Shown: one piece after another, positions 1,415 through 62,692 of the stretch
Position numbering within the stretch: the stretch's first letter is position 1
Layout of the letters: each line of letters begins with the position of its first letter
Made by a program: the position numbers and the translations under genes
Notes under the pieces: generated by a model
Seen by the model: only the letters and a program-made list of their open reading frames with translations
What the model was told of the DNA's origin: nothing
Database searches by the model: none
Origin: Candidatus Moraniibacteriota bacterium
GTDB taxonomy: Bacteria > Patescibacteriota > Minisyncoccia > Moranbacterales > UBA1568
Assembly: GCA_028688415.1 (NCBI GenBank)
Contig: JAQTYF010000001.1
Location: 10,385-74,384 of the forward strand
Direction: 5' to 3'
DNA length: 64,000 nucleotides

Positions 1415-1446
<32 letters not shown>

Positions 1447-1668: not shown

Positions 1669-1706
<38 letters not shown>

Positions 1707-1916: not shown

Positions 1917-1949
<33 letters not shown>

Positions 1950-9713: not shown

Positions 9714-9748
9714 AATAGTTCCTCATATTGTTTTGAAGCTAATCACTA

Positions 9749-9905
9749 CCCAAAAGAATTTTTTCAGCATCCTTTCCACACTGACTGAGCAAGAGCTCTC
9801 AGATCGAAAAAAGAAGTTGTGATTGTGTAGATTGGGGACTGCTTTTTTCGTAATACTGAGAGCTCTTGTGAGAGGTGGAACGATGATGAAAAATTGGCTT
9901 TTGGG
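9749..9905 (+). mobile_element. MITE-like element, family 1 copy A (about 157 bp) with terminal inverted repeats CCCAAAAGAATTTTT / AAAAATTGGCTTTTGGG and an internal GAGCAAGAGCTCTCAG / CTGAGAGCTCTTGTGAG palindrome
   Basis: Near-identical reverse-complement copy at 26710-26871. The ends are inverted repeats of each other and are shared with family 2 (49995-50144, 62693-62843). Confidence 0.65.
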
Positions 9906-9967
9906 CGGTGAATAGAGACTTTCTCTTGTGGAGATTTGCACTTTAAAAGATGGTTTAAGTGCGCTTT

Positions 9968-9998
9968 ATTGACAAGAAGAAAAAGTTGTGCTACAATA
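9968..9998 (+). promoter_or_regulatory. Strong sigma70-like promoter TTGACA-17-(TGC)TACAAT driving tRNA-Leu
   Basis: TTATTGACAAGAAGAAAAAGTTGTGCTACAATAG, about 125 nt upstream of the tRNA. Confidence 0.5.
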
Positions 9999-10125
9999 GA
10001 GAACTGAGAAATTCGAACAAAGTGATCGAATTCTATCTTTCTTTTTGTTGTGTATAGGGGATTTTCCCGTATATGAGACCTTTTTGTCTTTGGAAGAAAA
10101 AAGAACAGAAGAAAAAAGAATAGAG

Positions 10126-10209
10126 GCCCTGGTGGCGGAATTGGTAGACGCACTAGCTTCAGGTGCTAGCGTGAGCAATCACATGGGAGTTCGAGTCTCC
10201 CCTAGGGCA
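10126..10209 (+). tRNA. tRNA-Leu (anticodon CAG), type II with long variable arm
   Basis: GCCCTGGTGGCGGAATTGGTAGACGC...CTAGCTTCAGGTGCTAG (anticodon loop TTCAGGT gives CAG)...long variable arm...GGGAGTTCGAGTCTCCCCTAGGGCA. Confidence 0.85.
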
Positions 10210-10381
10210 CAACGTAAAAAGAGAACTTCTCCTCGTGAGAAGAGCATCTTTCGTAATAATTCATTCTTGTTGATGGCTAAAAAATACCTCAACAAGAAAT
10301 AATCAATCTCAAAGATATTTTCTTTTTGGCATCTTTTTCAAAGGTGGACAAAAACAGGGTATCAGAGAAAAAGTAAACAGT

Positions 10382-12493
10382 ATGCAGACGAATAATTCGT
10401 TTCAAAAAAACAGAGACACTGGTATATCAGCTCACACGAGCCATACCAATGGTGTTCTCGGAGGAGGAGAAAAACCTCCTGTCGCAGGTGCGTTCGAGGG
10501 TATCGTCGCACATGCCCAGGCGCCACGTGCGACACAGAATAAATCATACGGACATGTCGCGTCCAAGCAGACTTCATTCGTGAAGCCTCTTTCGTTGTCG
10601 ACACAAAAGTCAGGTACCTCTGTCTCTAAAGGACAGTCAGCCTCAAATAAGTCGAGCCTAGGCGGTCCAGCTTCGAATAAACCAAGTCTGAACAGGCAAC
10701 CGATGAAAAAATCTGGAGTGCCAGGGAAAAAGAGTGGTCAGAAAAACAATCGTCGTTTTCCGATGCCAATGAAGAGTCGACTCGAATCGACGCACAACGG
10801 TGTCTCGGTTCCTGTACTCGGTGAAAAACGTCTCCGTATCATCCCTCTTGGTGGTCAGGAAGAAGTTGGTCGCAATATGACTGTGTTCGAATACGGCAAC
10901 GATATTGTGATTGTTGATATGGGACTTCAGTTTCCAGAAGAAGATATGCCAGGTATTGACTATATCATTCCGAATGCCAATTATCTGAAGGGGAAAGAAA
11001 AAAATATCCGTGGTGTCGTATTTACCCATGGTCACCTCGATCATATTGGTGCTGCGCCACTCCTCTTGAAACAACTTGGATATCCGCCAGTCGTGTCTCG
11101 TGACTTGACTTTGGCGCTTATCAAACACAAGGTTGACGATCAAGAAAAAGGTGCTGCGAGCCGTCTCAAGATGGTACGTATCAAAACCGTTGAAGACCGT
11201 ATCAAACTCGGCGCATTCGAAGCACGTTTCTTCGATGTCGAGCATTCTATTATGGACGCTATCGGAATTGTACTTCTGACACCAGTCGGATCAGTTATTC
11301 ATATGGGTGACTGGACAATTGCCAATGATCCTCTCGAAGAAAAAGAAATTTCCTACAAACATCTCGCCAATCTGCCACGACCGACGATACTCATGCTTGA
11401 AAGTTTGGGAGCACTGAAGAAAGGACTTCCACCGTCAGAACAGGAAGTGCATCAGAATTTGAAGAACCTCATTCGTACGGTTCCTGGACGTTTGATTATT
11501 GGTACGTTTGCTTCACAGATTCGTCGTATCAGCTACCTCATCGAATATGCAGAACAGTTGGGGAAGAAAGTGGCACTTGAGGGGTACAGTATGAAAATGA
11601 ACATCGAAGTCGCCAAGGAACTCGGGTATATCAAAGTGAGAAAAGATACACTCATCACCGTCAATGATATTCATAAATACGCCGATAACCAAGTTGTCGT
11701 CATTTGTACAGGTGCGCAAGGTGAGCTCAATGCGGCTCTCTCTCGTATCGTCACTGACAATCATCGATTCATCAAACTCCAGAAGAATGACACAATCGTG
11801 TTTTCCTCCTCAGTTATTCCAGGCAACGAACGAACGATCCAACGTCTGAAAGACAACCTCTATCGCAAGTGTGATAACATCATCCACAGTGATATTATGG
11901 AAATTCACATCGGTGGTCACTCGACTGCACAGGGGATGGAGGAGATGCTCCGTCAGGTACAGCCGACGTATTTCTTGCCGGTGTATGCCAATCATTATTT
12001 CTTGAAAGAAGCTGCCAAGATCGCCTTCCGAATGGGCTTTCCAGAGAAAAATGTTTTTGTGCTCGACAACGGTGGAGTATTCGAAGTCGGTGAGAACAAT
12101 TTTTCAGCTGTTTTGAAAGAAAAAGCAGATACGAGTTACGTCTTCATCGACGGTCTCGGTGTTGGAGATATCGGACATGTTGTGCTTCGCGATCGCCAGG
12201 TGCTTGCTCAGGATGGTATGGTAGTGATTACTGCTATTATCGATTCCAAGACCAAAACTGCTGTCGGAAATATCCAGATCACTTCACGCGGATTCATCCA
12301 TGTGAAAGAAAACTTTGATCTCGTCAATGAGACGAAACGCAAAGTAGAAAAAATCATTCGAGAAAATACTTCGAAAGACGTGTCTCTTGATGCTGATCTC
12401 ATCCGAAATCAAATCCGTGATATTATCGGTCAGTTCCTCTTTACCAAGACGGAACGTCGCCCGATGGTCCTCCCAGTGGTCATCGAAGTCTAA
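10382..12493 (+). CDS. rnj: Ribonuclease J (metallo-beta-lactamase/beta-CASP RNase) with a ~130-aa low-complexity S/K/G-rich N-terminal extension
   Basis: HxHxDH motif (THGHLDHIGAAP), beta-CASP region, and RNase J-like C-terminal domain. 703 aa. Confidence 0.8.
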   Translation: MQTNNSFQKNRDTGISAHTSHTNGVLGGGEKPPVAGAFEGIVAHAQAPRATQNKSYGHVASKQTSFVKPLSLSTQKSGTSVSKGQSASNKSSLGGPASNKPSLNRQPMKKSGVPGKKSGQKNNRRFPMPMKSRLESTHNGVSVPVLGEKRLRIIPLGGQEEVGRNMTVFEYGNDIVIVDMGLQFPEEDMPGIDYIIPNANYLKGKEKNIRGVVFTHGHLDHIGAAPLLLKQLGYPPVVSRDLTLALIKHKVDDQEKGAASRLKMVRIKTVEDRIKLGAFEARFFDVEHSIMDAIGIVLLTPVGSVIHMGDWTIANDPLEEKEISYKHLANLPRPTILMLESLGALKKGLPPSEQEVHQNLKNLIRTVPGRLIIGTFASQIRRISYLIEYAEQLGKKVALEGYSMKMNIEVAKELGYIKVRKDTLITVNDIHKYADNQVVVICTGAQGELNAALSRIVTDNHRFIKLQKNDTIVFSSSVIPGNERTIQRLKDNLYRKCDNIIHSDIMEIHIGGHSTAQGMEEMLRQVQPTYFLPVYANHYFLKEAAKIAFRMGFPEKNVFVLDNGGVFEVGENNFSAVLKEKADTSYVFIDGLGVGDIGHVVLRDRQVLAQDGMVVITAIIDSKTKTAVGNIQITSRGFIHVKENFDLVNETKRKVEKIIRENTSKDVSLDADLIRNQIRDIIGQFLFTKTERRPMVLPVVIEV

Positions 12494-12569
12494 TAGAGAC
12501 AATAGGTATCAAAAAAAACTCTCCTGCCATCTGGTTGGAGAGTTTTTTTGTTTTTTCAGGCTTTCTGCT

Positions 12570-14153
12570 CTACTGTATATATTCAAACTTCTCTCGAGAA
12601 AATTGTTTTTTGAGAATCATTCTTTGTACTTTGCCTGTCGATGTCCTCGGTAATTTTTCAGGAGAGAGCGAGAGAAGGTATTTTGGTGCCTCGTATGCTC
12701 CGATGAGGGGTGTATGAGAGAGAATGTTTTTTTTGAGCTTCTTGAATGCCTGATCGGTATCGACATGTTTTTTCCAACAAATGATGGCAGCTACTTCTTC
12801 CCCGTATCGATCATCGACGACACCTATGACATAGACCTGATCGATATCTACCGATACCTTCTTTAGTCTATTTTCTACAGCAGTAGGAGAGATGTTCACG
12901 CCTCCCTTGATGATGATTTCTTTTTTCCTTCCTTTCAAAAAGAAGAACTTTTTTTTATCGATAATTTTGAAATATCCGATATCGCCCGTCAAGAAATATC
13001 CGTTTTGAAAAGCAGGTTCCTTACCTACGTATCCTCGCATAACAGCATCACCTCTTACGATCAATTCTCCCTCTTCATTTTCACCGAGATGTTCTCCTGT
13101 ATTGCTAGCAATCTGGACATCTGCCCACGGCATCGATATACCGATAGAGTTTTCTTCCACAATCTTTTTGTGGAGAGCGGAAGAGAGTGAGAGAGGGACG
13201 CCAGTCACCCGTAGCGCTGTTTCTGTCTGTCCATAACCTTGGTAAAGGGGAATATGGTATGTATCTTCGAATTCGAGGGCACTGTGCGCTATGACTGGGG
13301 CGGAACCGATCTGAATTCTATTGAGCAGGATATCGTTTTTTACGTGCATAAACTCTGATTCACGTACCAATTGATCATATACGATTGATTGAACGATTGA
13401 TGTGATGGTGGATTGTGTTTTACTTACTTGATTCCAGAAGTTTGAGCTGGAATATGTCGGAGGAATAGCAATAGATCCTCCAGAAAGGAGTATAGAGAGA
13501 CAAAATGTTGTCGAATTGATGTGATGAAGAGGAAGATTGACGAGGAAGCGATCAGTATCTCTGATATCGAACCATCGCCGAATACCATCAGCATTGACAA
13601 TCAAATTTTGTAGAGAAAGTTGCGCTCCCTTAGGATGTCCAGTCGTTCCAGAAGTAAAGAGAATGAGAGCAATGTGATCTGGATTCTTCTGTAATATTGG
13701 CAGTTCTTTCTCTGACCGATAAAGAAATCCAGAAAAGATTTCGATACGCACTCCTTCAATCGATGCCTGATCGATTGATTTTTGTATTTTTTCTTGAACG
13801 ATGAGATATTTTGATTGAGTGATGCGTATTTTGTAGGCATAGAGTTCGCCAATGTCATTTTTCGTATCGAGAGGAATGGTGATGATACCCATACTCCATG
13901 CCGACCAACTGAGTATGAGGAGATCGATCGAATTGGTAAAAGCGAGAGCAATACAATCTTTTTCTTTGAGACCAAGGGTCTGTAGATAATGGAGAGCACG
14001 CTCCATTTTTTCGAGCAGTGCTTCATACGAGAGAGTTTCGAGAAGAGACCCGTCTGATGAACAGGACATGAGGGCAATGTTGCGCGGTGATTTTTTAGCT
14101 ACTTCAGAAACGAAAAGGTAGATATTGCTGATTGGATGGAGAGGAATGTTCAT
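12570..14153 (-). CDS. AMP-dependent synthetase/ligase (acyl-CoA or acyl-ACP ligase, FAAL-like candidate starter-loading enzyme). Start taken at MNIPLHP (14153); the ORF extends to 14225.
   Basis: AMP-binding signature LFTSGTTGHPKGAQLS and adenylation-domain architecture. Divergently arranged next to the PKS-like operon. Confidence 0.8.
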   Translation of the reverse strand: MNIPLHPISNIYLFVSEVAKKSPRNIALMSCSSDGSLLETLSYEALLEKMERALHYLQTLGLKEKDCIALAFTNSIDLLILSWSAWSMGIITIPLDTKNDIGELYAYKIRITQSKYLIVQEKIQKSIDQASIEGVRIEIFSGFLYRSEKELPILQKNPDHIALILFTSGTTGHPKGAQLSLQNLIVNADGIRRWFDIRDTDRFLVNLPLHHINSTTFCLSILLSGGSIAIPPTYSSSNFWNQVSKTQSTITSIVQSIVYDQLVRESEFMHVKNDILLNRIQIGSAPVIAHSALEFEDTYHIPLYQGYGQTETALRVTGVPLSLSSALHKKIVEENSIGISMPWADVQIASNTGEHLGENEEGELIVRGDAVMRGYVGKEPAFQNGYFLTGDIGYFKIIDKKKFFFLKGRKKEIIIKGGVNISPTAVENRLKKVSVDIDQVYVIGVVDDRYGEEVAAIICWKKHVDTDQAFKKLKKNILSHTPLIGAYEAPKYLLSLSPEKLPRTSTGKVQRMILKKQFSREKFEYIQ

Positions 14154-14238
14154 ACTGAAGAAAAAAGATAGATGTGTATGAGAACAATGACATATTAAGC
14201 CTAGTATATCACAAAAAACGATCAAAGTATTTGGTGAT

Positions 14239-14264
14239 ATTTCAGTACTTTGCTATACTGAAAT
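14239..14264. promoter_or_regulatory. Inverted repeat ATTTCAGTA-N8-TACTGAAAT overlapping an extended -10 (TGCTATACT) in the divergent ligase/PKS-operon intergenic region
   Basis: 9-bp perfect arms. TATAAT also at 14265-14270. Confidence 0.35.
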
Positions 14265-14284
14265 CGTATAATTTATGAAAAAGT

Positions 14285-14662
14285 ATGAAACAAAAAATTC
14301 TTCTTGAGATTTCGACAGCGTATTTTGTTGTTCTCGCTCTTTCAGTTTCTTTTGTTCCTGAAATTTTTGGATTAGATGTCTCTGGGGATATGCTCAAAAG
14401 ATCTCTTATAGCAATTCTCTTTTTTGTAGCAGGAATTGCAACATTTTTTGTTTCAAGACGAAATGAATCATCTTCTTCAATTCACTTACTCATCTCTTTT
14501 TTTATCTTTCTTTTTACTTCTCTTTCTCTTTTTGGTCTTATAGGTATAGTGTCTGGTTATAACATTGCTCACCCGTTACTCTTTTCTGTGGACGGACTTT
14601 TTCTTGTTATTCATACATCTTTTGCTACAGCTTTTTTCTTTGTTCGTAAGCAATTGCAATAA
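14285..14662 (+). CDS. Hypothetical small integral membrane protein (125 aa)
   Basis: Three to four hydrophobic helices. First gene downstream of the divergent promoter region. Confidence 0.5.
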   Translation: MKQKILLEISTAYFVVLALSVSFVPEIFGLDVSGDMLKRSLIAILFFVAGIATFFVSRRNESSSSIHLLISFFIFLFTSLSLFGLIGIVSGYNIAHPLLFSVDGLFLVIHTSFATAFFFVRKQLQ

Positions 14663-14749
14663 TAATATTTTTCTTCTTTTTTGATACAATGACTTGATAC
14701 TCGTGTATTTATGGTACAAGACATGGTGATATAATCAGAATGATCCGAT

Positions 14750-16819
14750 ATGAAAGAGAGACCGATGTACCAACCAAATGACATCTGTATTGTGGGGAGA
14801 GGTTGTGTCTTGCCAGAAGCATCTCGTCCAGAGGAATTCTGGACAAATATCATCTCAGGTACGTGTTCTATCAGGCAGATGCCAGAGGAAAGGTTTGATA
14901 AGCGTCTTTATTTCAGTCGAGAGAGATTGGCAAAAGATAAGTCGTATTCTTCGTACGCTGGTTTCGTCGATGATGAGGACCTGAAGAAAATCAGTAAACG
15001 TCTTGGTCTCGTATTCTCTCGGAATAGGAGATTGGAGATTATGTCTCTTGAGGCCACAAGACAGGCATTCGCTTGTCTGAAGCAGAAAAGAAAAAAAATA
15101 TTAGAGAATACAACTCTCTTTATTGGCTGTATGGAAGCGAGCGATGGATTTTCGCTTGAGAATTTCTTTGCATTCAATAAAAAATTCTTGAAGCAGTATA
15201 TACAAAAAAGTAATATAAAAAGCAAGAAAAAAGCCTTTGATGCGATAGAGCAATATTTCAATCATGAAGTGGATGATGCTTTACAAATCGATGCTGTATT
15301 AACGACATCTGTTATTGATGTCTTGAAGAAAAAATTTCATTTGAAAGGGGAGGGGGTGCTTGTTGATGCGGCTTGTGCTTCATCTCTGGCAGCAATCGAG
15401 AGTGCTGTGGACGCTCTGAAGAATTATGAGACGGATATGGCCGTAACTGGAGGTATAGAAAGTAATTTACGACCCGATTCATTTGTTTTATTCAGTAAAG
15501 TCGGAGCTCTCTCTGAAAAAAGATGTCTTCCTTTTGATGAACAAACTGACGGATTGTCTCAGGGTGAAGGCGCAGTCATTTTTGTTCTTCAAAGGATGGA
15601 AGATGCTTTGCGAGATGGGAATACCATTTATGGCATCATACGATCAGTAGGAAGTGCGAGCGATGGGAATAGTTCGAGCCTCTTTTCCCCGTCTATAGAA
15701 GGGCAACTCTTGTCGTATGATCGAGCCTATCAAAGTATAGACCCACAGAGTATTGATTATATAGAGTGTCATGGTACGGGTACGAAACTTGGAGATAAGA
15801 CAGAAATCAATTCCCTAAACGCTTTTTTCAAAAAGAAAATACCTATTGGATCAGTGAAATCTCTTGTCGGTCATACCAAAGGATCTGCTGGAGCTGTTGG
15901 TCTTCTCAAATGTTTATTATTGATGGAACAAAAGATTATTCCACCTACTCGATACATTACATCATCGATGGCTCCTCAGAATGGAAATGTGTATGTAAAC
16001 AAAAGACCTCTTTCTTTACGTAAAAAATCTAAACATAAGGCCTTGCGTTGTGGAGTGTCTGCTTTTGGATTTGGTAATATCAACTATCATGTTGTTGTTG
16101 AAGAATGGAAAAAGGAAGGAAAAATAAAGTCTCAATTGATGTTGCAGGAACCAGAAACAATAGTGGTTATAGGGGAGGGAATTGCCGTATACAAAGATAT
16201 CGATTCGGATGTATTGGTCAGACAATTCAATATTCCTCCAAAGAGTATTGCCTCTATAGATAAAATTCAATTACTCGCGCTTTCTGCTGTACAGGATGCT
16301 TTCGAAAAATCTCATATAGCTATTGATTCACTCAAGAAAGAATCGGTTTCTGTTCTCTCTGCTTCTATCATCGGTTTGGAGTCTGCTCTTCATTTCTCTT
16401 ACCGTATTATAACGGCTGAGTTTGAGAAAGTATTCGATCCATCCGATGAAAATATGAAAAAGATGTTTGCAAAGTATAAAGACAGATTCCCTGAAGTCAC
16501 TGAGGATACTGGTCCAGGTATTTTAAACAACGTGATCGCAGGAAGAATATGTAACACTTTCGATTTCAAGGGAAAAAATTTCAATGTTGATGCTGATTTC
16601 AATTCTTTTGCATCAGCACTCAAGCTTGCCAAGAGGGAACTTCAGAAAAATGATGGAATAGTAATACTTGTTTTTTGTCGAGAGAAACTTGATACGGAGA
16701 GAAAATATATACTAAGAAAAGACGAGGTGTCATGTCTTTTATTGACGACGCTTCGTCGGGCAAAAGAAGAAAGCTATCCGATCCAAAAATTGATACAATC
16801 AATCCGATATGATGAATAA
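14750..16819 (+). CDS. Beta-ketoacyl synthase (type I PKS/PUFA-synthase-like KS) followed by a truncated, cysteine-less second KS-like N-terminal fragment (CLF-like)
   Basis: KS N-terminus ICIVGRGCVLPEASRPEEFW, active-site Cys in VDAACASSLAAIESA, catalytic His motifs ECHGTGTKLGD and VGHTKGSAGAVG. The C-terminal ~230 aa repeat the KS N-half pattern (IVVIGEGIAV..., GPGILNNVIAGRICNTFDFKGKNFNVDADFNSFASALKLA) with Cys replaced (DADFNS) and no His-His half. Confidence 0.85.
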   Translation: MKERPMYQPNDICIVGRGCVLPEASRPEEFWTNIISGTCSIRQMPEERFDKRLYFSRERLAKDKSYSSYAGFVDDEDLKKISKRLGLVFSRNRRLEIMSLEATRQAFACLKQKRKKILENTTLFIGCMEASDGFSLENFFAFNKKFLKQYIQKSNIKSKKKAFDAIEQYFNHEVDDALQIDAVLTTSVIDVLKKKFHLKGEGVLVDAACASSLAAIESAVDALKNYETDMAVTGGIESNLRPDSFVLFSKVGALSEKRCLPFDEQTDGLSQGEGAVIFVLQRMEDALRDGNTIYGIIRSVGSASDGNSSSLFSPSIEGQLLSYDRAYQSIDPQSIDYIECHGTGTKLGDKTEINSLNAFFKKKIPIGSVKSLVGHTKGSAGAVGLLKCLLLMEQKIIPPTRYITSSMAPQNGNVYVNKRPLSLRKKSKHKALRCGVSAFGFGNINYHVVVEEWKKEGKIKSQLMLQEPETIVVIGEGIAVYKDIDSDVLVRQFNIPPKSIASIDKIQLLALSAVQDAFEKSHIAIDSLKKESVSVLSASIIGLESALHFSYRIITAEFEKVFDPSDENMKKMFAKYKDRFPEVTEDTGPGILNNVIAGRICNTFDFKGKNFNVDADFNSFASALKLAKRELQKNDGIVILVFCREKLDTERKYILRKDEVSCLLLTTLRRAKEESYPIQKLIQSIRYDE

Positions 16820-19800
16820 AAGTCAGGGGTATTATTACGGTACATATACTGTTTCGATGAAGCCATACTCCGGAGTGGATTTTTCGAGACGATGTTTTAT
16901 TTTTGCTGGTCAAGGATCTACTTTTCCAGGTATGTTTCGTGATGAATATCTCAAATCAATCCTTATCCGTGAGAAGTTCGCGCTTGCAGATAGATTGATG
17001 AGACGATTTCATTTACCCAAGATTTCGGACTATATTATGCATCCCGAGAATTTACAGGAAAAGACATTACCAGTAGTATCCAATATTGCTTTGTTTACAT
17101 TAGAAATGGCTCTTTTTGATATGTTACGAGCATCTCAAATCATTCCAGAAAAAGTAACGGGGCATAGTTTTGGCGAATACTCAGCCCTCGTGGCTTCGGG
17201 TGTCGTATCTTTTGAGGAGATGCTTATGATTATTTATCACCGAGATATCTTTTGTCCGAAAGCGCATACGGCAGGCTTCTTGATAGCAGTGAATGCAGAT
17301 GTACGATACATCAAGGCTGTTTTGAAACATCAAAAATATTTCATTAGCAATATCAATAGTCCGAATCAGACGGTTATTGCCGTCGTTCCTGAATGCGTCG
17401 ATGAAATTGTGGATATTTTTCGAGAAAATGAAACGAAATGCAAAGTTCTGTACGGCGTACCACAGCCATATCATTCCCCGTATCTTCTGAGTTCACAGAA
17501 GAAAATTGAGGCATTTCTTCGGAAGAAGCAATTTACTTTTCGAAAACCGACTATACCATTTTTTTCTTCGGTATTGAAAAAGGAAATCAATCAGCAAAAT
17601 TTTCGAAAAAGTGATATTGAGAAGATTCTCTGCACCCAGATTACAACTCAAGTGAACTTTATCTATCAGGTACGATCAATGTATAATTTAGGATGTTTTT
17701 CTTTTTTGGAAATCGGTCCGAAAAAAATATTCTCTGTCTTTGTCGAAGATATTTTGGCAGAGAAAAAACAGTCAGTAAAAACAGAATGTATACAATCTTT
17801 TTTTCAAAAAGAACAGAAAGCGAATACGGCAGGAAAAAATGTGAAAAATGCAAAATTATTCACAATTATATGTAAAACTATTAGAGAGATAACGGGATAT
17901 GAGATAAAAAGTATTCATCCCAATGGAAGATTCCAGGAAGATTTTGGGATAGATTCTATCAAGAGAACGGACATTCTTCTGACTATTTTTCGGAGATTAA
18001 AAATATCTCTCGGTGATGATTTTAATACGTCTCATTTCAAGAGTATTGATGATGTTATCTTATACATTGAAACAATACAAAAAAAATCTTTGTCATCGAT
18101 ACAAGATACCGAGACAAAGAAGGTGCATAAAAAAAGAAAAACAGAATTCCAAAGATATGCTTTTCTTCCAGTAACAGAAGAGCTTTCTATTGCTTCTTCT
18201 CAATGTTCGAGAGACGATCGAGCTAACCTGTTTGTTTTAGACATCGAGAATATTTTTGAATCTGATAGTGTTGTTTTGAAACGATGGTTTTCTTTCGTAA
18301 GGAGGGTAGTTGATAAAAATCAGACATTTACTCTCGTGATACGAGCACAAGATATACAGTGGGAGTATAAAAAAATGTTGTCCCTCTTTCAATTCTTCCG
18401 AGGTTTTTTACAGCCAATCAAACAGAGTACATTTTGTTGTTTGTGCCTTTCATTTGGATCGGAACAGAGTATTGCCGTTTCCAGTCTTGCATCTTTCCTG
18501 AAATCTCTCAAAAGAGAATTTTCAGGAATGTTCTTTCGATATGTTCATAGTGATGCAGTGAAAGATTTTAAGGAGTTTCTTCCCGAGAAAGAGGGAATGA
18601 ATGGAGATGACATTGTATATACACGAGGGAAGAGATATCGCATGCAACCAGTTTTGATACAAAATAATCCAATTATCCCTTTCAAAAAAGATGCTGTCAT
18701 AATAGTGATCGGAGGAGCGAGCGGAATTACTTTTTCTCTCATAAAGCATATCGCAAAAGAGGAAAAGCCGATTTTCTACGTGATCGGTCGTAGGAATGAA
18801 CAAGAAAAGATCATACGCGAACATATACGTATACTCAAAAAATATACGCCACATGTTTTTTATGTTTCATTGGACGCTCGTGACAAAGTTGCTCTGGAGA
18901 AGGTGTGGAAACGTGTTATGCGAGAACAGAAACGAATTGATTATGTAATCAATGGTGCAGGTACAGTCGATATTGATTTTTTTGACCAGAAAACAGAGCT
19001 TTCAATAGAGTCCGAATTTTGTAATAAAGTGGTACCGACATTGAATGTTTTGCAATTGGCTCTGAAATATCATCCAAAAAGAGTTATCAATTTTGCATCA
19101 ATCATCTCGCGGTATGGGAGTGCTGGTCAAAGTATCTATACCGCAGCCAATGCATGGGTGAGTGAGATGACTCAGAAATACGGTAAAGAATTAGAGAAAT
19201 ATGGTTCGGTGGCAACGGCTATTCATTGGCCAGCTTGGGAGAATACGGGTATGACAGCAGAAAAAAGCGTTTCTCAGAAATTGGATGAATACGAAGTGTC
19301 ATTGCTTGATCCAGATGATGCGAATCGATTGTTTGCCCTTGATCTCTCATTGCAGAAGAGTGGACCAGTCTATTATTTGGATGCATCGGATGATAGCGCC
19401 TTATCCTTTCCTTCTAATAATTTCATAAAATACGCACCGATTCTTGGCTCACCCTCTGACTTGTCTTCACTGACTTTTTCTCAGAATATTTTCAGGAAAA
19501 GTTTTCATACGACGAGCGATAAGTGGCTCAGAGATCATAAAATACAGGGAGCAATGTATGTTCCTTTGGCAATTGGCATAGGAATGTTTCTGTGTTTGGG
19601 AAAAATGTATTGGAAGAAAGTTCCTCTATTGAAAAATATTTCTGCACAGAATCCTCTTATAGTAAGAAAGGCTGTGGTGGAATGTACACTCGAACGGAAG
19701 AATGTTGATAATAAGAATACTCTTTCTTTGAAATCAGATGTATCTTATTTTTCCGCCGAAGAAATCAAGGAGGAAAAAGAAGAACAAAAGTTATTTTGTA

Positions 19801-20252
19801 TAATCAAAAAAAATGGTACAAAAATATCAAAAAAGGATATTTACGATTTCTTTGAAAAAGAAACAAGAATATCATTTGGACCCACCTTTCAGACATTGCA
19901 GGCAGTGTGGAAAAATGAAGACGGTTCTTCTTGTGCTGTCATTGATACTGCCAAGCTTCTTCCGATATTTGGAATAGAAACTTTCGACAGACTGATTCAG
20001 TGGATCGATGCTTCTTTTCAGATGCTCGGGCTACAATCTGCGGATCAACAAAGAACTTTTGTGCTTCCGATTAGTATTGATTGGATGAAATATTATGAAG
20101 AGATCGAAAAAACACGCTTTGTATACCCGGTACTTTTGTCTTTTACTCCTACCGAAACAGGTGTGCGTGGTGATGTCTCTGTCGTAAACGAAAAAGGAGA
20201 AGTTATCCTTGAAATGAAGGGCATTTTTCTTCGCAAAGGAAGTTTTTCTTGA
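16809..20252 (+). CDS. Multidomain PKS-like protein: acyltransferase, ACP, ketoreductase and dehydratase (AT-ACP-KR-DH)
   Basis: AT motifs FAGQGSTFPGM and GHSFGEYSA (GHSxG). ACP with DFGIDSIKRTDIL (DSL-type Ser). KR Rossmann IVIGGASGITFS and YTAANAW. DH motif LRDHKIQGAMYVPLA (HxxxGxxxxP). Overlaps the KS gene by 11 nt. Confidence 0.85.
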   Translation: MMNKSQGYYYGTYTVSMKPYSGVDFSRRCFIFAGQGSTFPGMFRDEYLKSILIREKFALADRLMRRFHLPKISDYIMHPENLQEKTLPVVSNIALFTLEMALFDMLRASQIIPEKVTGHSFGEYSALVASGVVSFEEMLMIIYHRDIFCPKAHTAGFLIAVNADVRYIKAVLKHQKYFISNINSPNQTVIAVVPECVDEIVDIFRENETKCKVLYGVPQPYHSPYLLSSQKKIEAFLRKKQFTFRKPTIPFFSSVLKKEINQQNFRKSDIEKILCTQITTQVNFIYQVRSMYNLGCFSFLEIGPKKIFSVFVEDILAEKKQSVKTECIQSFFQKEQKANTAGKNVKNAKLFTIICKTIREITGYEIKSIHPNGRFQEDFGIDSIKRTDILLTIFRRLKISLGDDFNTSHFKSIDDVILYIETIQKKSLSSIQDTETKKVHKKRKTEFQRYAFLPVTEELSIASSQCSRDDRANLFVLDIENIFESDSVVLKRWFSFVRRVVDKNQTFTLVIRAQDIQWEYKKMLSLFQFFRGFLQPIKQSTFCCLCLSFGSEQSIAVSSLASFLKSLKREFSGMFFRYVHSDAVKDFKEFLPEKEGMNGDDIVYTRGKRYRMQPVLIQNNPIIPFKKDAVIIVIGGASGITFSLIKHIAKEEKPIFYVIGRRNEQEKIIREHIRILKKYTPHVFYVSLDARDKVALEKVWKRVMREQKRIDYVINGAGTVDIDFFDQKTELSIESEFCNKVVPTLNVLQLALKYHPKRVINFASIISRYGSAGQSIYTAANAWVSEMTQKYGKELEKYGSVATAIHWPAWENTGMTAEKSVSQKLDEYEVSLLDPDDANRLFALDLSLQKSGPVYYLDASDDSALSFPSNNFIKYAPILGSPSDLSSLTFSQNIFRKSFHTTSDKWLRDHKIQGAMYVPLAIGIGMFLCLGKMYWKKVPLLKNISAQNPLIVRKAVVECTLERKNVDNKNTLSLKSDVSYFSAEEIKEEKEEQKLFCIIKKNGTKISKKDIYDFFEKETRISFGPTFQTLQAVWKNEDGSSCAVIDTAKLLPIFGIETFDRLIQWIDASFQMLGLQSADQQRTFVLPISIDWMKYYEEIEKTRFVYPVLLSFTPTETGVRGDVSVVNEKGEVILEMKGIFLRKGSFS

Positions 20253-20884
20253 AAAAAGATATGAGAAACCTCTTTTCATCACGAGGAAATATGAATCTAC
20301 TGCGTTGTCTCGCTCAGCCAACGAGAATATTTCGTCATCAGGGATGGGATATAGAGAAGCAACGTTCGATAGCTGATTTTTTGGTATACATTCTTTCGGG
20401 AGAAGAACTCAAGCATTCGGAGACCGGAAGACCGATAATCAACGACTTCACCGATGTGTCGATTTCACATAAACCGCACTATATCGTTGTCGCTACGATC
20501 CAGTCTCCGTATAAGATTGGAATTGATATTGAATACCTCTTGACGGATATACAAACAGTGTTCTTTATCGGTCCAGTAATCAAAAAGAACGAACAGTTTG
20601 TACTGGATTGTTTCTGCAGAGAAAATAACCTTTCCTATTCTTCTGGAGTAATCGCTTTTTGGTCTCTCAAAGAATCTTTCTTCAAATGTCTTGATGTTGA
20701 TATGAAACCTGCTCAGATTTTTGTATCGCGGATTTATAATGAGAAAGTATTTTTTTCTTTTTCAAACTCTATCAAAGAATGTATGAAGGAAAGAAAAATA
20801 CAGTTTGAATATGCTACAATAGAAATTCGAGGGGAATATGTCCTGACACAGACGATTATGTGTGAGATGAAAAAATATGAATAA
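20249..20884 (+). CDS. 4'-phosphopantetheinyl transferase (Sfp/EntD type)
   Basis: PPTase motifs IGIDIEYL (GxDxE) and WSLKESFFKCL (WxxKEa..K). 4-nt overlap with the upstream gene. Confidence 0.75.
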   Translation: MKKDMRNLFSSRGNMNLLRCLAQPTRIFRHQGWDIEKQRSIADFLVYILSGEELKHSETGRPIINDFTDVSISHKPHYIVVATIQSPYKIGIDIEYLLTDIQTVFFIGPVIKKNEQFVLDCFCRENNLSYSSGVIAFWSLKESFFKCLDVDMKPAQIFVSRIYNEKVFFSFSNSIKECMKERKIQFEYATIEIRGEYVLTQTIMCEMKKYE

Positions 20885-21905
20885 AAATATGCCGTCACAA
20901 TATCGTTGGCAAACACTCGATATTATCAAAACTATCGGATGTCTTGGAGCTATTTTTAGCCATATATTGATATGGCAATTTGGCACCACTCATCGTGGTG
21001 TAGGTATAGATCTGTATGATATGAATGCTGTTTCTTGGCCGATACTTACTTTTTGTTTCGTGATAGTGCACATTCTCTTTCTTTCAGCAGGAGCGTCTTT
21101 TTATTTTTATATTGAGAAATATCACCCTTCAATGCGTCAAGTTGGTACTCGATTGATACCTATTATCCTTCTGGGATTTCTTTTTGGTCTCAATTATCAC
21201 CCGTTTATTCTGTATTGGAATGTTTTTTTCTTTTATACTCTTTCTATCCTCACTCTTTTTTTCTTACAGCGTTTTTTCGGATATACGATTATTTTTCTTG
21301 TCACTTCACTGACGCTTTTTCTCACACCATTGCTCCGCATGTTTTTCGATGATGGATTTTTGGAAAATTATTTTATCACCTTTTTCTTTACTGATGCACA
21401 GAATACTATCAATTTCTATCCATTTTTCCCGTTCTTTTCTCTGATCGGATTTGGATTTCTCACGAGTCATATCTATTACACGTATCAGAAAAAGAAGTTA
21501 TTCATACGAAGCCTCGCCTCCGGGACGTTGGCATTATTCTTCCTCACCCTAATCCTAGAACGAGTGGATGTCTCTGATATCTTTGGCGTAACAGCCCATC
21601 TCCCTATACGTTTTCTTCTCCTAACCATTGCTTTTTTTGTTGTAATTCTCTCTCTCATCGAGCTGATTGCTCATGGCAGAATGATAACGAAAAAATACCA
21701 CCCATTGGTGATTATCGGACGACATATTCTCCCCGTGTATGTCTTGACCCTTTTGAGCTCACTAGTTTTCTTGAATTTTTTCCAACGACTGAGTTTTTAT
21801 AACAAAGAGAGTATAGGAGTTTTTCTTTTTTCTCTTTTCATAACATTTGATATTGCGTATGCGATAGCGGTGATACTCACATATCGGAACAGGCAGAATG
21901 CCTAG
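20877..21905 (+). CDS. Polytopic membrane protein, probable acyltransferase-3 (OafA/OatA-like) family
   Basis: About 10 TM helices. N-terminal R-x3-LD-x2-K-x-I-G-x3-A-x4-H pattern (RWQTLDIIKTIGCLGAIFSHI) typical of AT3-family membrane O-acyltransferases. Overlaps the PPTase stop. Confidence 0.45.
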   Translation: MNKNMPSQYRWQTLDIIKTIGCLGAIFSHILIWQFGTTHRGVGIDLYDMNAVSWPILTFCFVIVHILFLSAGASFYFYIEKYHPSMRQVGTRLIPIILLGFLFGLNYHPFILYWNVFFFYTLSILTLFFLQRFFGYTIIFLVTSLTLFLTPLLRMFFDDGFLENYFITFFFTDAQNTINFYPFFPFFSLIGFGFLTSHIYYTYQKKKLFIRSLASGTLALFFLTLILERVDVSDIFGVTAHLPIRFLLLTIAFFVVILSLIELIAHGRMITKKYHPLVIIGRHILPVYVLTLLSSLVFLNFFQRLSFYNKESIGVFLFSLFITFDIAYAIAVILTYRNRQNA

Positions 21906-21960
21906 TGCACATTTTCTTTGTTTGGTATATACTATACATGTATTCGTAACAGCAATCTTT

Positions 21961-23013
21961 ATGAAAAAAAGTTTCTTTGCCATTTTCTTTGTATTGGTTT
22001 TTGCAGTAAGCATAGGTATGCCTCAGCCAGTGCATGCTGGTGGTGTCGTCGATGCAATCGTGGATGCGGTGACGAATGTTGTTGCGATAGCCGCTGGTGT
22101 CGTACAGGGCTCATTGTCACTTATTAGTGGGGGGAGTTTCTCTGATGGATATGCTCAGGGATTCTGCAGTGTATCGAGTAATGGGAATGGGATATTCAGT
22201 CCTGGAGGGTGTCAGAATGCGGGAGGGCAAATTGTTTCGTCTACAGGAGTTCCATGTGTAGCGAATTACAATGTTGCATGTATTGCCACTAATGCTTGTG
22301 GAACAACTAATAGCGGTACATATGATTGTGTAGGTACGTGTACTGCTGTCGCCCCACCAATGCCCCCTAATCAAGGAGCTTCTTGTGATTCTGCTCAAAA
22401 TAATTGTGGATCGAAAAATGTAGGCACTATGAACTGTGGAGTATGTTCTGCTGTTGCTCCTGCTGATGCGTGGTTTTATCCTGGAGTTGCTTGTCTCTCC
22501 GCTCCGAACCAATGTGGTATGCAAAATGCCAATGGAACGTATAATTGCTTGGGACAATGTGCTGGGTCAACCTCTCCTTCACCAGCTCTCTGCTCCTCAT
22601 ACAATACCAATAAACCAACAGTATCACTGACAGCAAATCCGCTCGTACGTACATCGGCAGGATCGACCACTCTCACATGGACCGTAGGCAATGCAACGAG
22701 TTGTCGTCATTCAAGTAGTGATACCTCTATCTGGTCTGATGCACCAATAACCCCCGCTAACGATTCAGCTAACGTCTCTGTTACAGCTCCTACTACCTCT
22801 TTCACCATCTCCTGTTCGAATGCCTCAGGAGTAACCAACAGAACGGTATATGTCAAAGTTCAGAATGATTGTTCTCCTCTCGATTGTGGAGGCACAGCAA
22901 AATCTGATCAAGTGTGTGTAGGGAAACGATACAATGACATAAAAGGTTGTGGCGTGAATAACTGTACCGGTACCCGTTATTGTGACTTCAATTGGAAAGA
23001 GACGGCGTTGTAA
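21961..23013 (+). CDS. Secreted cysteine-rich repeat protein (signal peptide, then three or more CG..N.GTY.C.G.C.AVAP modules and an S/T-rich C-terminal domain). Start taken at MKKSFF (21961).
   Basis: Signal-peptide-like MKKSFFAIFFVLVFAVSIGMPQPVHA. Repeats CGTTNSGTYDCVGTCTAVAP / CGSKNVGTMNCGVCSAVAP / CGMQNANGTYNCLGQCAGS. Confidence 0.55.
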   Translation: MKKSFFAIFFVLVFAVSIGMPQPVHAGGVVDAIVDAVTNVVAIAAGVVQGSLSLISGGSFSDGYAQGFCSVSSNGNGIFSPGGCQNAGGQIVSSTGVPCVANYNVACIATNACGTTNSGTYDCVGTCTAVAPPMPPNQGASCDSAQNNCGSKNVGTMNCGVCSAVAPADAWFYPGVACLSAPNQCGMQNANGTYNCLGQCAGSTSPSPALCSSYNTNKPTVSLTANPLVRTSAGSTTLTWTVGNATSCRHSSSDTSIWSDAPITPANDSANVSVTAPTTSFTISCSNASGVTNRTVYVKVQNDCSPLDCGGTAKSDQVCVGKRYNDIKGCGVNNCTGTRYCDFNWKETAL

Positions 23014-23029
23014 GAAATAAACAAGAGAC

Positions 23030-23359
23030 ATGTCAGAAAAGATAGTACAAATAATGATAATGATTTTATTGTTAAGTATCACGCTCTTTGTCATGACACT
23101 TGTTTTTGTTGTTCTAATGAGACCGACGACAATGATTGAAACAGTCTCTCCTTTGCCTGTTTCTGATCTGCCTATGATACAGATTTCTCCAGAAATCGAT
23201 CAGCAGACGTCTCCGAATCCAGCATTGTATTCTGATGATGCAGATTTACGAATCATTGACGAGCAGGTGCGACGAGGAGTATTGACACCTGAAGAGGCGA
23301 AACAACGATTACAGGAAATTGTCAAGCAAAAAAGTAATACCGTTTCCACAACGCCATAG
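23030..23359 (+). CDS. Hypothetical small membrane-anchored protein
   Basis: N-terminal TM helix (IMIMILLLSITLFVMTLVFVVLM). 109 aa. Confidence 0.45.
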   Translation: MSEKIVQIMIMILLLSITLFVMTLVFVVLMRPTTMIETVSPLPVSDLPMIQISPEIDQQTSPNPALYSDDADLRIIDEQVRRGVLTPEEAKQRLQEIVKQKSNTVSTTP

Positions 23360-23388
23360 AGGTAAAAGATTTTCTGACTGAGCATCCA

Positions 23389-24030: not shown

Positions 24031-24142
24031 TGGAGTATTATACCAGAATAAAGCCTCTATTTGACTTTATGGTATACTAGAGGAGTGATGTTTGAAGGAA
24101 TATTTTTATAAGGAAGCATAATTTGAATTTCTCGTACTCTGT

Positions 24143-25129
24143 ATGAAACAAAGAATATTTTCAGGAATACAGCCATCAGGAAACCTGCATCTTGGGAATT
24201 ATCTCGGTGCTATCGCGCAGTGGCTCACGCTTCAGGATGAATATGATACGCTTTTTTGTATTGTCGATCTTCATGCTATCACCGTCCCGCAAGACCCTGA
24301 AGCGCTCCGCAAAAAAACGCTCGAGATTGCCAAAATTTATCTCGCTTCTGGTATCGATCCGAGTAAATCAACGCTTTTCGTCCAATCACATGTGAAAGAA
24401 CATACCGAGCTTGGCTGGATACTTAATACTATTGCACGTTTTGGTGATTTGGAAAAAATGACACAGTTTAAGGACAAGTCAGTCAAAAGCGACAAAGAAA
24501 CTGTTGGTATTGGATTGTTTGATTACCCAGTGTTGATGGCTTCTGATATTTTGCTCTATGATACCCATGTTGTACCGGTAGGCAAGGATCAGATGCAACA
24601 CGTTGAACTTACCCGTACACTTGCCAAGCGTTTCAATGAAAGATTTGGTGAAACGTTTGTAGTGCCCGAAGGCAGAGTATCGAAAGAAGGTCAGCTCATT
24701 ATGGCGCTTGATGATGAGACGAAGAAGATGTCCAAATCTGCTGTCAGTGAGTATAATTTCATTGCCCTTACCGATGATGCAGATACGGTGAGGCGGAAAA
24801 TCCGCAAGGCTGTCACTGATGGTGAATCAGAGGTTGTTTATTCCGATGAGAAACCAGCACTGAAGAATCTCATCAATATCTATACTCTTCTTTCGCAGAA
24901 AACTTCAGAGGAAATAGAAATATTGTACAGAGGAAAGGGATATGGTGATTTCAAAACTGATCTCGCAGAAGTAATAGTAAATTTCCTCACACCATTTCAA
25001 GAACGTCTCGCCCATATTTCTGATGAAGAAGTCTTGAGTATTCTTCACGCTGGTGCAGAGAAGGCGCGAGGGCTTGCACAGAAAAAAATGCAATCTGTTC
25101 GCAAGAACATTGGTTTTTTGGTAGAATAA
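24143..25129 (+). CDS. trpS: Tryptophan--tRNA ligase
   Basis: Class I aaRS motifs: HIGH-type (PSGNLHLGNYLGAI) and KMSKS (KKMSKS). 328 aa. Confidence 0.9.
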   Translation: MKQRIFSGIQPSGNLHLGNYLGAIAQWLTLQDEYDTLFCIVDLHAITVPQDPEALRKKTLEIAKIYLASGIDPSKSTLFVQSHVKEHTELGWILNTIARFGDLEKMTQFKDKSVKSDKETVGIGLFDYPVLMASDILLYDTHVVPVGKDQMQHVELTRTLAKRFNERFGETFVVPEGRVSKEGQLIMALDDETKKMSKSAVSEYNFIALTDDADTVRRKIRKAVTDGESEVVYSDEKPALKNLINIYTLLSQKTSEEIEILYRGKGYGDFKTDLAEVIVNFLTPFQERLAHISDEEVLSILHAGAEKARGLAQKKMQSVRKNIGFLVE

Positions 25130-25159
25130 AAGGAAGGTATAATTATTATTGATACAGTT

Positions 25160-25630
25160 ATGTTCGAATCCATGCCAGAGCCAAAGAAAGAAGCAGTAGT
25201 GATAAAGCCCTTTCGTGAGAAGACGCCTGTATGGAAAAGTATTGTCGAAGAAGGTGTGGAATCCGTACTTATCGATGACATTATCGATCGAGTCACCGCC
25301 TCCCCAAATGAGTTGTATAGTTTCAGTCTCGAATCGAAATTTCGCGAGAAACTGGTCTTACTCGCGACAGAGGCTATCAATGAATTGTTGCAGAATGATC
25401 AGAAGAATTTTGCTGATCCAATCGACCGACAGACGAGCGGATGGGATCGTGAGATAGCGCACAGCAGCGAAGATCCCGATAAAGAGATCGCAAATCGAGG
25501 AAATGTTCTGATGAAGAGTCTTGTGACACTCTCTGGCGGGAAGGCGAATTTTGTTGAGAAAGTGGTTGCTTTGATGCAAGAAAAAGAGAGACAAAAAAAA
25601 TCTCTTGATCATCAAAAGAATATGCAGTAA
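25160..25630 (+). CDS. Hypothetical protein (156 aa)
   Basis: ORF with plausible context and a terminator immediately downstream. No motif recognised. Confidence 0.45.
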   Translation: MFESMPEPKKEAVVIKPFREKTPVWKSIVEEGVESVLIDDIIDRVTASPNELYSFSLESKFREKLVLLATEAINELLQNDQKNFADPIDRQTSGWDREIAHSSEDPDKEIANRGNVLMKSLVTLSGGKANFVEKVVALMQEKERQKKSLDHQKNMQ

Positions 25631-25638
25631 GAAAAAAA

Positions 25639-25672
25639 GAAGACGTATCCGAGGTTCCGGTACGTCTTTTTG
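25639..25672. terminator. Rho-independent terminator (bidirectional hairpin AAGACGTA-loop-TACGTCTT with flanking A/T runs)
   Basis: 8-bp perfect stem with 13-nt loop, T-tract after the stem, A-tract before it. Confidence 0.6.
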
Positions 25673-25700
25673 ATTGCGAGTTTCCGCTTGTTTATGGACA

Positions 25701-26039
25701 CTAGAGACGACAGCTCCAGTGAATCTCCAGCATAATGAAGAAGAGAAGGCTTCGTCGCGGTTCAGGTGTATTTGCGAGAAAGACCTGTAGCGACGCGAGT
25801 GTCTCTTGGGACCATGAAGGGAGAACATCGAGCGACCTCGTTTTATGAGATTTATCGTTCGAGAAGTGAGCAATTTTTTCTAAAAGAGAATATATTTCTT
25901 CTTCTGGCCAAAGTATCTCATACCCTGGATCTGGTACGTAATTCTCGAGAAGACATCGATCAGCATGACTGATAATCTCATCTTGTTCGAGAATTTGGAG
26001 CAAGGCACTTATTTGCGCCAGAGCGTTTACTGTTCCCAT
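25701..26039 (-). CDS. Hypothetical protein (112 aa)
   Basis: ORF convergent with 25160..25630 and sharing its terminator. No motif recognised. Confidence 0.3.
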   Translation of the reverse strand: MGTVNALAQISALLQILEQDEIISHADRCLLENYVPDPGYEILWPEEEIYSLLEKIAHFSNDKSHKTRSLDVLPSWSQETLASLQVFLANTPEPRRSLLFFIMLEIHWSCRL

Positions 26040-26157
26040 CTTCTTTCTCCAGTTGTTAAGGAAAGATAATCATCACACAAGAATGTAGAAAAGTCAAGAA
26101 AAAAGACAGGACTATGAGTAGTGGTCCTGTCTCATTCTATTCCACGTTGGGAGGGGA

Positions 26158-26400
26158 TTAGGCATTGCAATAAATGAGTCTCCTGGTGCTTCTTTGAACA
26201 GGAGGATCTATTTCTTTCTTCGCTTCGATAGGAAATGCTTTCAGAGGAAAACATTGTGAAGAATCGCAACACGTCGACTTTATTTCGAGCAGTTTTGCTC
26301 TTGTCTTTGGTATATTGCAGGAACGCAACTCATCTCTGTATGATTCTCCCATGAGAGGGCAGATCACCTTTGGCACTAAAAAGAACAATGTGGTATTCAT
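26158..26400 (-). CDS. Hypothetical small Cys-containing protein (80 aa)
   Basis: ORF only. Contains CPLMGE and CCDSSQC patches. Confidence 0.25.
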   Translation of the reverse strand: MNTTLFFLVPKVICPLMGESYRDELRSCNIPKTRAKLLEIKSTCCDSSQCFPLKAFPIEAKKEIDPPVQRSTRRLIYCNA

Positions 26401-26557
26401 AGGGATCCTTTCTCTATCAGTTGAGGCTTGTTGTTAAGGAACGATTTTTGAATATGAAAAAACCACCCTAGAAGGTGGTTTTGAAAAAAATATGAATCCA
26501 AGAGAGGGGAGTGAATATTCTCTTTTGGAGTATTTCTTTTTTCATATGTTGATAGTA

Positions 26558-26655
26558 GTATACTCCCACACCAACCTTTTCGCAAGTATAAAAATTTGTA
26601 TGTCAAAAGTTTGTTTGTTCTCGGTAGTTGAAGGTTGGTGTGGGAGTATACTCCT
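26558..26655. repeat. Long hairpin: perfect 22-bp inverted repeat AGTATACTCCCACACCAACCTT ... AAGGTTGGTGTGGGAGTATACT separated by about 52 nt
   Basis: Exact complementarity of the two arms. Lies next to MITE copy B. Confidence 0.6.
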
Positions 26656-26709
26656 AAAAAACAAATTGGCAATATTCTGTCAAGAGGAGTCTTTTGAAGA
26701 AGAGTCGTT

Positions 26710-26871
26710 GTGACCTATTAAAAGCCAATTTTTCATCATCGTTCCACCTCTCACAAGAGCTCTCAGTAAAACGAAAAAAGAAGCCTCCAATCAACACACT
26801 CTTAGCTTCTTTTTTCGATCTGAGAGCTCTTGCTCAGTCAGAGTGGAAAGGATGCTGAGAAAATTCTTTTG
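26710..26871 (-). mobile_element. MITE-like element, family 1 copy B (inverted relative to copy A at 9749-9905)
   Basis: The reverse complement aligns over about 160 bp to copy A, including the internal GAGAGCTCTTG palindrome and the TTCTTTTTTCGATCTGAGAGCTCTTGCTCAGTCAG block. Confidence 0.65.
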
Positions 26872-26900
26872 ATAGGTCTGCAAGTTTTTTTGAAAAGAGT

Positions 26901-49950: not shown

Positions 49951-49994
49951 AGAACGGATGAAAAAGAATAGTTTTTTCTACTTTTCTCTCAATA

Positions 49995-50144: not shown

Positions 50145-50278
50145 GTGGTGAGAGAAACTGTACTTCTTAAAAGGAATGGAAGTTTTTTATTGACAAGAAA
50201 GAGAGATACCTCTATGCTACATCGTCGTTGAGAATTGCTTCTCTACGAATATTTATGCAACTTTCCAAGGAGTAAAGA

Positions 50279-62667: not shown

Positions 62668-62692
62668 AGAGTGTAGAAGGGTAAACAGAGTG

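Follow-up and report, generated by a model that had tools for sequence, protein, structure and literature searches.

A 64,000-nucleotide (nt) stretch of Candidatus Moraniibacteriota DNA (contig JAQTYF010000001.1; hereafter the window) contains two inverted copies of a short, hairpin-forming repeat, copy A behind a manC-like gene and copy B behind a phosphomannomutase/phosphoglucomutase gene (PMM). Our analysis indicates that A and B are probably independently inserted members of a dispersed, non-autonomous family of hairpin-forming repeats in one lineage of Candidatus Moranbacteria (Candidate Phyla Radiation, CPR/Patescibacteria). [quoted passage not shown] Each copy sits in the short gap that separates a stop codon from the promoter after it, one of the few places where this compact genome tolerates extra DNA. 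An earlier reading of the same DNA (the original prediction) had described the copies as MITE-like elements that bracket a 16.8-kb segment, split the GDP-mannose pathway genes and point to recent rearrangement. Its description of the element was largely borne out, but its view of the segment was not.

Structure of copies A and B

A repeat search of the window detected one long inverted-repeat pair, with arms of 152 nt at 9751-9902 and 26720-26871 that are 92% complementary and separated by 16,817 nt. The inverted pair of the original prediction is real, but its identity is 92% (12 mismatches over 152 nt) instead of ~95%. A 29-nt piece of the element matched the window solely at copies A and B, where shuffled sequences gave an expectation of 0 matches. 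The predicted internal palindrome (CTGAGAGCTCTTG) was recovered four times, i.e. on both strands of both copies. The terminal inverted repeats were equally genuine, and each copy folds into a near full-length hairpin of roughly 170 nt. Copy A folds with a minimum free energy (MFE) of -77.8 kcal/mol (z = -8.8) and copy B with one of -73.5 kcal/mol (z = -6.8), the z-scores being relative to dinucleotide shuffles. The two copies extend as follows:

9743..9911, + strand: copy A, hairpin span, with core 9751-9903 (CAAAAGAAT...GGCTTTTG) and outer stem TCACTACC/GGCGGTGA
~9787-9802 and ~9856-9872, + strand: arms of the internal palindrome of copy A
26712..26878, - strand: copy B, hairpin span, with core 26720-26871 and outer stem GACCTAT/ATAGGTC

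All copies, including those described below, have the termini (C/T)CAAAAGAAT...ATTG(G)CTTTT(G/A)(G/A). The conserved core measured 151-172 nt across copies. The element is non-coding: reading frames and stop codons vary among the copies, so that no frame is conserved, and the longest open reading frame (ORF) through it had no homologue in the protein database. A small protein encoded by the element was also considered and rejected for the same variation of frames and stops. At the 3' end, a Shine-Dalgarno-like GAGAGGTGG stands before ATGATG, but the resulting peptides are only 10-20 amino acids long and differ per copy. The element had no Rfam match at the gathering threshold, and the sub-threshold matches were generic hairpins only. 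Simple scans for promoter-like and terminator-like sites found none inside copies A or B. We also rejected the idea that the outer stems are remnants of intrinsic terminators, since these stems are rich in A and T and lack a subsequent T-run, and since a separate terminator is retained by greA in the metagenomic locus L003 (see below).

A dispersed repeat family

Scanning JGI metagenomes with the core-palindrome pattern yielded three true contigs representing two loci, L001 (the same locus as L002) and L003. The same pattern gave 0 matches in the GTDB species representatives and 0 matches in viral contigs. The copies in L001 and L003 are intact, have unique flanks on both sides, and come from independent metagenomes. 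The proteins encoded next to them (RluB-like and GreA) are only 86% identical to their orthologues in the genome of the window, and these copies therefore belong to a second species.

Two further copies, L107a (2793-2944) and L107b (13712-13885), were found in ~20 kb around greA in the window's own genome (L107). Identity between copy B and the L107 copies is 96% (L107a) and 98% (L107b), compared with 92% between B and copy A; copy A reaches 93% with each of L003 and L107b. Copy B is thus nearer to the L107 copies than to copy A, and A and B are therefore not a pair.

A direct repeat in the window (49995-50149 / 62693-62847) revealed a second subfamily, which has a different interior but the same type of termini as the first (CCCAAAAGAAT...ATTGCTTTTGGG). 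Its two copies each lie directly 3' of a gene, in sense orientation:

49983..50157, + strand: D1a, second subfamily, termini TCAATACCCAAAAGAAT...ATTGCTTTTGGGTGGTGA, different interior, hairpin MFE -77 kcal/mol (z = -8.2)
62684..62852, + strand: D1b, second subfamily, 98% identical to D1a over 155 nt, with a different outer stem (AACAGAGTGC/GTAGTCTGTT)

In total, the family comprises eight loci in two subfamilies and two species. Six of these copies lie in the ~119 kb that were sampled from the window's genome (~1 per 20 kb), from which a rough extrapolation suggests that the copy number is probably in the tens per genome of ~0.94 Mb. Upstream of the eight copies lie manC, PMM, serS, greA, and genes for a VTT-domain protein, a Pif1 helicase, a ferric-reductase-like protein and a hypothetical protein. 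They share no mannose theme, and the association of A and B with mannose genes is probably coincidental.

Short-read Logan contigs (SRR22315503, SRR22315507) end 28-48 nt inside the copies, and Logan contig L091 begins inside D1b. As the repeat is multi-copy, de Bruijn assemblies stop inside the copies.

Several other sequences came up in these searches. A pattern built from the termini only had six matches in viral contigs; these matches do not fold as hairpins and resemble coding sequence, and we regard them as due to chance. The JGI scan also returned L004 (3342-3407; Ga0181420_1002464), a perfect long palindrome that is unrelated to the element and probably an assembly fold-back artefact. 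The 3' arm of L107b contains a nested GC-rich mini-hairpin of 21 nt (CCTGCCTGTCGGCAGACAGG), and small hairpins therefore do insert into hairpins in this genome. At L031 4230-4370, the distant Moranbacteria genome UBA8518 has a hairpin in which the apex (GGATGCCGTAGAATGAGGGAA) gives an nhmmer match to that of the second subfamily (E = 1e-7); the stems are of different sequence yet pair, and the CCCAAAAG termini are missing. This apex may be an older RNA or DNA motif that was captured by the mobile element.

Location of the copies and empty sites in relatives

We compared the manC neighbourhoods of 80 genomes and mapped the proteins of the window onto them. The closest genomes all belonged to Candidatus Moranbacteria/Moraniibacteriota, and the relatives compared are different species from that of the window. 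The features next to copies A and B are:

8685..9713, + strand: manC-like gene (mannose-1-phosphate guanylyltransferase; Pfam NTP_transferase and ManC_GMP_beta-helix), directly upstream of copy A
9969..9997, + strand: promoter-like site TTGACA-17-TACAAT of the tRNA-Leu unit, conserved in relatives
26645..26683, - strand: promoter-like block (CTCTTGACA...TTGCCA-16-TATACT) downstream of PMM, conserved in relatives
26901..28256, - strand: PMM (Pfam PGM_PMM domains I-IV), directly upstream of copy B on the - strand

The manC-like ORF ends 37 nt before the core of copy A and the PMM ORF ends 29 nt before the core of copy B, in agreement with the 36 and 30 bp given previously. Both copies are in sense orientation to their own upstream gene and lie between its stop codon and the promoter-like site of the next unit.

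In relatives, the distance from the manC stop codon to the TTGACA of the tRNA-Leu promoter is 5-25 nt, compared with 255 nt in the window. Likewise, the distance from the PMM stop codon to the conserved CTCTTGACA block is 4-30 nt in relatives (4 nt in L017), compared with ~215 nt in the window. The reverse also occurs, as the loci of the L001 and L003 type are empty in the window's own genome, with spacers of 53 bp (L106) and 104 bp (L107), respectively. Empty orthologous sites were thus seen in L011, L012, L017, L106 and L107. No copy of the element was detected in ~1.2 Mb of relatives' loci, and the loci syntenic with the window lacked it in blastn, nhmmer and a combined scan for termini and fold. 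The empty sites of the relatives contained no palindrome.

Complementary flanks

All eight copies sit between flanks of 7-10 bp that are specific to the locus and complementary to each other:

A: left TCACTACC, right GGCGGTGA
B: left GACCTAT, right ATAGGTC
L001: left TCAATACC, right GGCGTTGA
L003: left CTTAACAAC, right GTTGCTAAG
L107a: left ATTCTTCT, right AGAAGAAT
L107b: left GCCAATTTAT, right ATGATTTGGC
D1a: left TCAATACC, right GGTGGTGA
D1b: left AACAGAGTGC, right GTAGTCTGTT

On average, the two flanks of one copy formed 7.75 Watson-Crick pairs per 10 positions, compared with 3.0 (maximum 6) for left and right flanks taken from different copies. The cores of B, L107a and L107b are 96-98% identical, whereas their flanks are unrelated. 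Point mutation can therefore not have made the outer stems; either insertion produces them or the targets were palindromic beforehand.

There are three candidate sources of the flanks, namely insertion at the tips of palindromes, fold-back self-primed synthesis with an inverted target duplication as its product, and extension of the palindrome by template switching after insertion. A search with 7-mers for solo palindromic targets (TCAMTAC/GYGKTGA) was uninformative. Two other explanations were discarded: the flanks could represent another repeat family into which the element was nested, for which we found no paralogues within ~140 kb, and a TA duplication of the IS630/mariner type fitted copy B alone.

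A third, unrelated hairpin family was observed as well. It has a 55-nt core (TTTTTAGGAAACCATTGGGCGAAACTGCTTCGGACGGGTTTATCTAAAA) at the apex of hairpins of ~80-97 nt, at 41711-41807 and 48216-48302 in the window and at 13174-13252 in L106, and had no Rfam match above threshold. Its A/T-rich outer stems are wholly different between copies yet complementary, as in the main element.

A rather speculative extension is that the 152-nt family, its second subfamily and the 55-nt-core family all spread without direct target duplications, either by inserting at the tips of palindromes or hairpins, or because insertion itself creates an inverted target duplication of 7-10 bp. The latter could result, for instance, from self-primed synthesis in which the hairpin of the element folds back. 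If true, this would be an insertion mode not described for bacterial MITEs, and it would account for copies that are embedded in longer, locus-specific palindromes.

Mobile repeat or functional RNA

The copies are probably moved in trans, by an enzyme whose gene lies elsewhere. The hairpin in its folded, single-stranded form would matter for this mechanism, because cores that are 96-98% identical carry unrelated flanks that still pair. As hairpins in 3' untranslated regions (3'-UTRs), the copies would probably have little or mild effect.

Several observations weigh against mobility. The filled sites hold 60-100 bp of extra unique DNA beyond the conserved core, so that between different species no clean alignment of filled and empty sites was obtained. 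No transposase domain or RAYT-like gene was present among the scanned ORFs of the window. Local alignment revealed no significant direct repeat in the flanks of A, B, L001 and L003, except one near B, and inspection by eye of the other copies revealed none. The search for a target-site duplication thus gave no direct duplication, but only an imperfect 14-nt direct repeat a few nt outside the outer stem of copy B (p ~0.006 before correction for eight tests). Finally, at six of the seven informative loci, which lie between co-directional genes, the element is in sense orientation to the flanking genes (L107a lies between convergent genes and is uninformative), which is not significant for a sample of this size (one-sided p ~0.06). 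Such an orientation bias is unexpected for a purely neutral mobile element and leaves room for a role at the RNA level. Copies A and B point in opposite directions, but each is sense to the gene upstream of it, so a real bias would go with transcription and not with replication.

The same orientation data speak for an alternative, in which the element works as a structured RNA, such as an insulator, a terminator, a stabiliser of the 3'-UTR or the precursor of a small RNA, that was duplicated behind several genes and kept as a hairpin in sense orientation by selection. The hairpins are indeed very stable; the sense strand is the better-folding one for three of four copies, and it has more G-U pairs. 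There is one compensatory change from U:A to C:G in the apical stem, all outer stems stay paired, and the apex of the second subfamily is conserved in L031. However, the element contains no promoter-like site, no called terminator, and no Rfam match above noise. Close relatives do without it at the same loci, the genes upstream of it are unrelated in function, and greA in L003 has its own terminator upstream of an antisense copy. Moreover, near-identical cores with unrelated flanks in two species resemble mobility more than vertical descent. We therefore consider a functional RNA unlikely, and favour the mobile hairpin repeat.

Gene order across the 16.8-kb segment

The gene content reported for the segment between the copies was recovered in full, with the tRNA-Leu gene, RNase J, a polyketide synthase (PKS)-like cluster, trpS and several hypothetical genes. 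The main features in and next to the segment are:

7629-8666: PGI-like gene
10126..10210, + strand: tRNA-Leu(CAG), on the same strand and in the same place in nine relatives
10382-12493, + strand: RNase J
12570..23359, no strand assigned: PKS-like cluster (acyl-AMP ligase, KS, AT-ACP-KR-DH, PPTase and four hypotheticals)
from 23389: hyp213, adjoining the trpS side of the PKS-like cluster
24143-25129, + strand: trpS

The order FtsW-SBP5-PGI-manC-RNase J-(variable)-trpS-(small ORFs)-PMM(-)-YchF-GroEL was found, with the same orientations, in L012, L013, L015, L016, L017, L022, L024 and L028, in which manC identity ranges from 81% down to 54%. In L011 (manC identity 86%) the contig stops after the tRNA-Leu gene, and only the FtsW-SBP5-PGI-manC part is visible. 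The tRNA-Leu(CAG) gene lies on the + strand between manC and RNase J in nine relatives. Since the relatives have the same gene order without the repeat, the comparison implies that the 16.8-kb block was neither inserted nor inverted by the repeats; its order and orientation are those of related Moranbacteria. A comparison of this kind had been named beforehand as one that could refute the rearrangement, and it did so.

A 16.8-kb inversion mediated by homologous recombination between A and B, now or recently, is accordingly very unlikely. Uninterrupted identical stretches of 36 and 49 nt are common to the two copies. Such lengths are in principle enough for RecA-dependent recombination. However, nine relatives show the present orientation to be ancestral, and the cumulative GC skew rises without a break over 1-40 kb, with no reversal across the segment. 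Furthermore, the contig JAQVTP010000005.1 of an NCBI metagenome-assembled genome (MAG; GCA_028699965.1) has an arrangement identical to that of the window, and exact-protein look-ups report one further contig, of 0.2-1 Mb, on which most of the neighbouring genes are the same.

Even less probable is a composite transposon with the copies as its ends, or a 16.8-kb block, acquired horizontally and bordered by the copies, that separated manC from PMM. In favour of acquisition, the PKS-like cluster is missing from all related Moranbacteria loci and has a lower GC content (0.36-0.38 versus 0.41-0.45). However, this cluster is the only lineage-specific DNA within the segment and the repeats do not delimit it: it was inserted between RNase J, which ends at 12493, and hyp213, with edges that lie ~2.7 kb and ~3.4 kb inward of the two copies. 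A homologue of hyp213 comes immediately after RNase J in L012, without the PKS-like cluster. The tRNA-Leu gene, RNase J, hyp213, trpS and the small ORFs are all syntenic in relatives without the repeat. The GDP-mannose genes were not split either, as manC and PMM are apart in every relative and the other six copies lie behind non-mannose genes. Finally, A and B come from different sub-lineages of the family and are not each other's closest kin, so the notion that they bracket a unit was abandoned. The spot between RNase J and hyp213/trpS that holds the PKS-like cluster is also variable in L013 and L022.

An assembly artefact, by which a repeat was collapsed or mis-joined, can practically be dismissed: short-read Logan contigs break inside every copy, but the 12 differences between A and B show that they were not collapsed, and independent metagenomes hold intact copies with unique flanks on both sides. 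The joins of the MAG are correct and not misassembled, because all four junctions between copies and flanks link genes that are neighbours in relatives.

Other features of the window

Downstream of PMM, a conserved unit occupies 26459-26656 on the - strand. It consists of a hairpin with a 26-bp stem (cccacaccaa...ttggtgtggg), an ORF of 22-25 codons that encodes a hydrophobic C-terminus (MKKEILQKRIFTPLSWIHIFFKTTF), and a GC-rich terminator. The whole arrangement is also present in L017; L012 has the small ORF and the terminator, without the cccacaccaa hairpin.

The 23S rRNA gene at the start of the window (1-2085) contains a group I intron at 169-379 (Rfam RF00028, 67.7 bits). A 50-nt piece over the 3' end of the 5S rRNA gene (2325-2374) recurs 121 nt downstream (2446-2495). 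In addition, a 123-nt unit that begins inside tRNA-Met (46693-46767) is tandemly duplicated at 46749-46994, with 99% identity.

Comparison with known repeat families

MITEs of prokaryotes are short, AT-rich, intergenic elements with terminal inverted repeats, a stem-loop transcript, and subfamilies with common ends (review PMC10969869). The present element shares many traits with MITEs such as Correia/NEMIS in Neisseria, ERIC in enterobacteria and RUP/BOX/SPRITE in pneumococcus. It is shorter than 500 bp, non-coding and AT-rich, with terminal inverted repeats and a predicted stable stem-loop transcript; it lies in intergenic spacers, has subfamilies that share termini, and its copies break short-read assemblies. 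It also occurs in multiple dispersed copies (eight loci) with empty orthologous sites. In contrast to these MITEs, no direct target-site duplication was detected even at cores that are 96-98% identical, and locus-specific, inverted-complement flanks are found instead. Moreover, no parent insertion sequence (IS) with matching ends was found among the scanned ORFs of the window, and the host is a CPR bacterium with a genome of ~0.94 Mb. A full-text literature search found no paper describing such elements in CPR/Patescibacteria.

Bertels and Rainey are said to have described REPINs, in 2011, as REP doublets that form hairpins and are mobilised by RAYT (TnpA-REP, an HUH Y1 transposase). A typical REPIN measures roughly 70-110 nt. 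As in REPINs, a single long imperfect hairpin makes up the entire element, which is extragenic, often lies directly 3' of genes and lacks a target-site duplication, and the hairpin (single-strand) structure appears to be what is maintained. It differs from REPINs in its core of 152-172 nt, in the lack of a RAYT gene in the window, and in a copy number that is probably in the tens (six copies in ~119 kb). To our knowledge, locus-specific complementary flanks are not a feature of REPINs.

A third comparison concerns IS elements that insert into palindromes. IS1397 and ISKpn1 insert into the loops of palindromic units. The IS110-family element ISPpu9 is reported to insert into REP sequences (PMC12288879). 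An element that enters a palindrome at its centre would end up between complementary flanks, as in all eight copies and in the 55-nt-core family. Unlike the targets of these IS elements, however, the flanks described here are unique and do not belong to a repeat family, the empty sites of relatives lack a palindrome, and the elements are non-coding.

We therefore classify the element as a small, non-autonomous palindromic repeat of a CPR bacterium, with atypical complementary flanks that replace direct duplications. The label 'MITE-like' from the original prediction is still a fair account of the element's behaviour: this is a short, non-coding repeat that folds into a hairpin, with termini common to its copies, dispersed in intergenic spacers of at least two species and missing from orthologous sites in relatives.

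These results imply no rearrangement, no mobile 16.8-kb unit, and no link of the repeats to the GDP-mannose genes or the PKS-like cluster. Instead, they point to a previously undescribed family of small hairpin repeats in a CPR genome of ~0.94 Mb. In practice, such repeats break up assemblies of these organisms from short reads and might give rise to misjoins. Biologically, the family suggests recent activity of a mobile element, common to two species, in a lineage that is usually regarded as streamlined, and its locus-specific complementary flanks may point to a hairpin-dependent mechanism of insertion.

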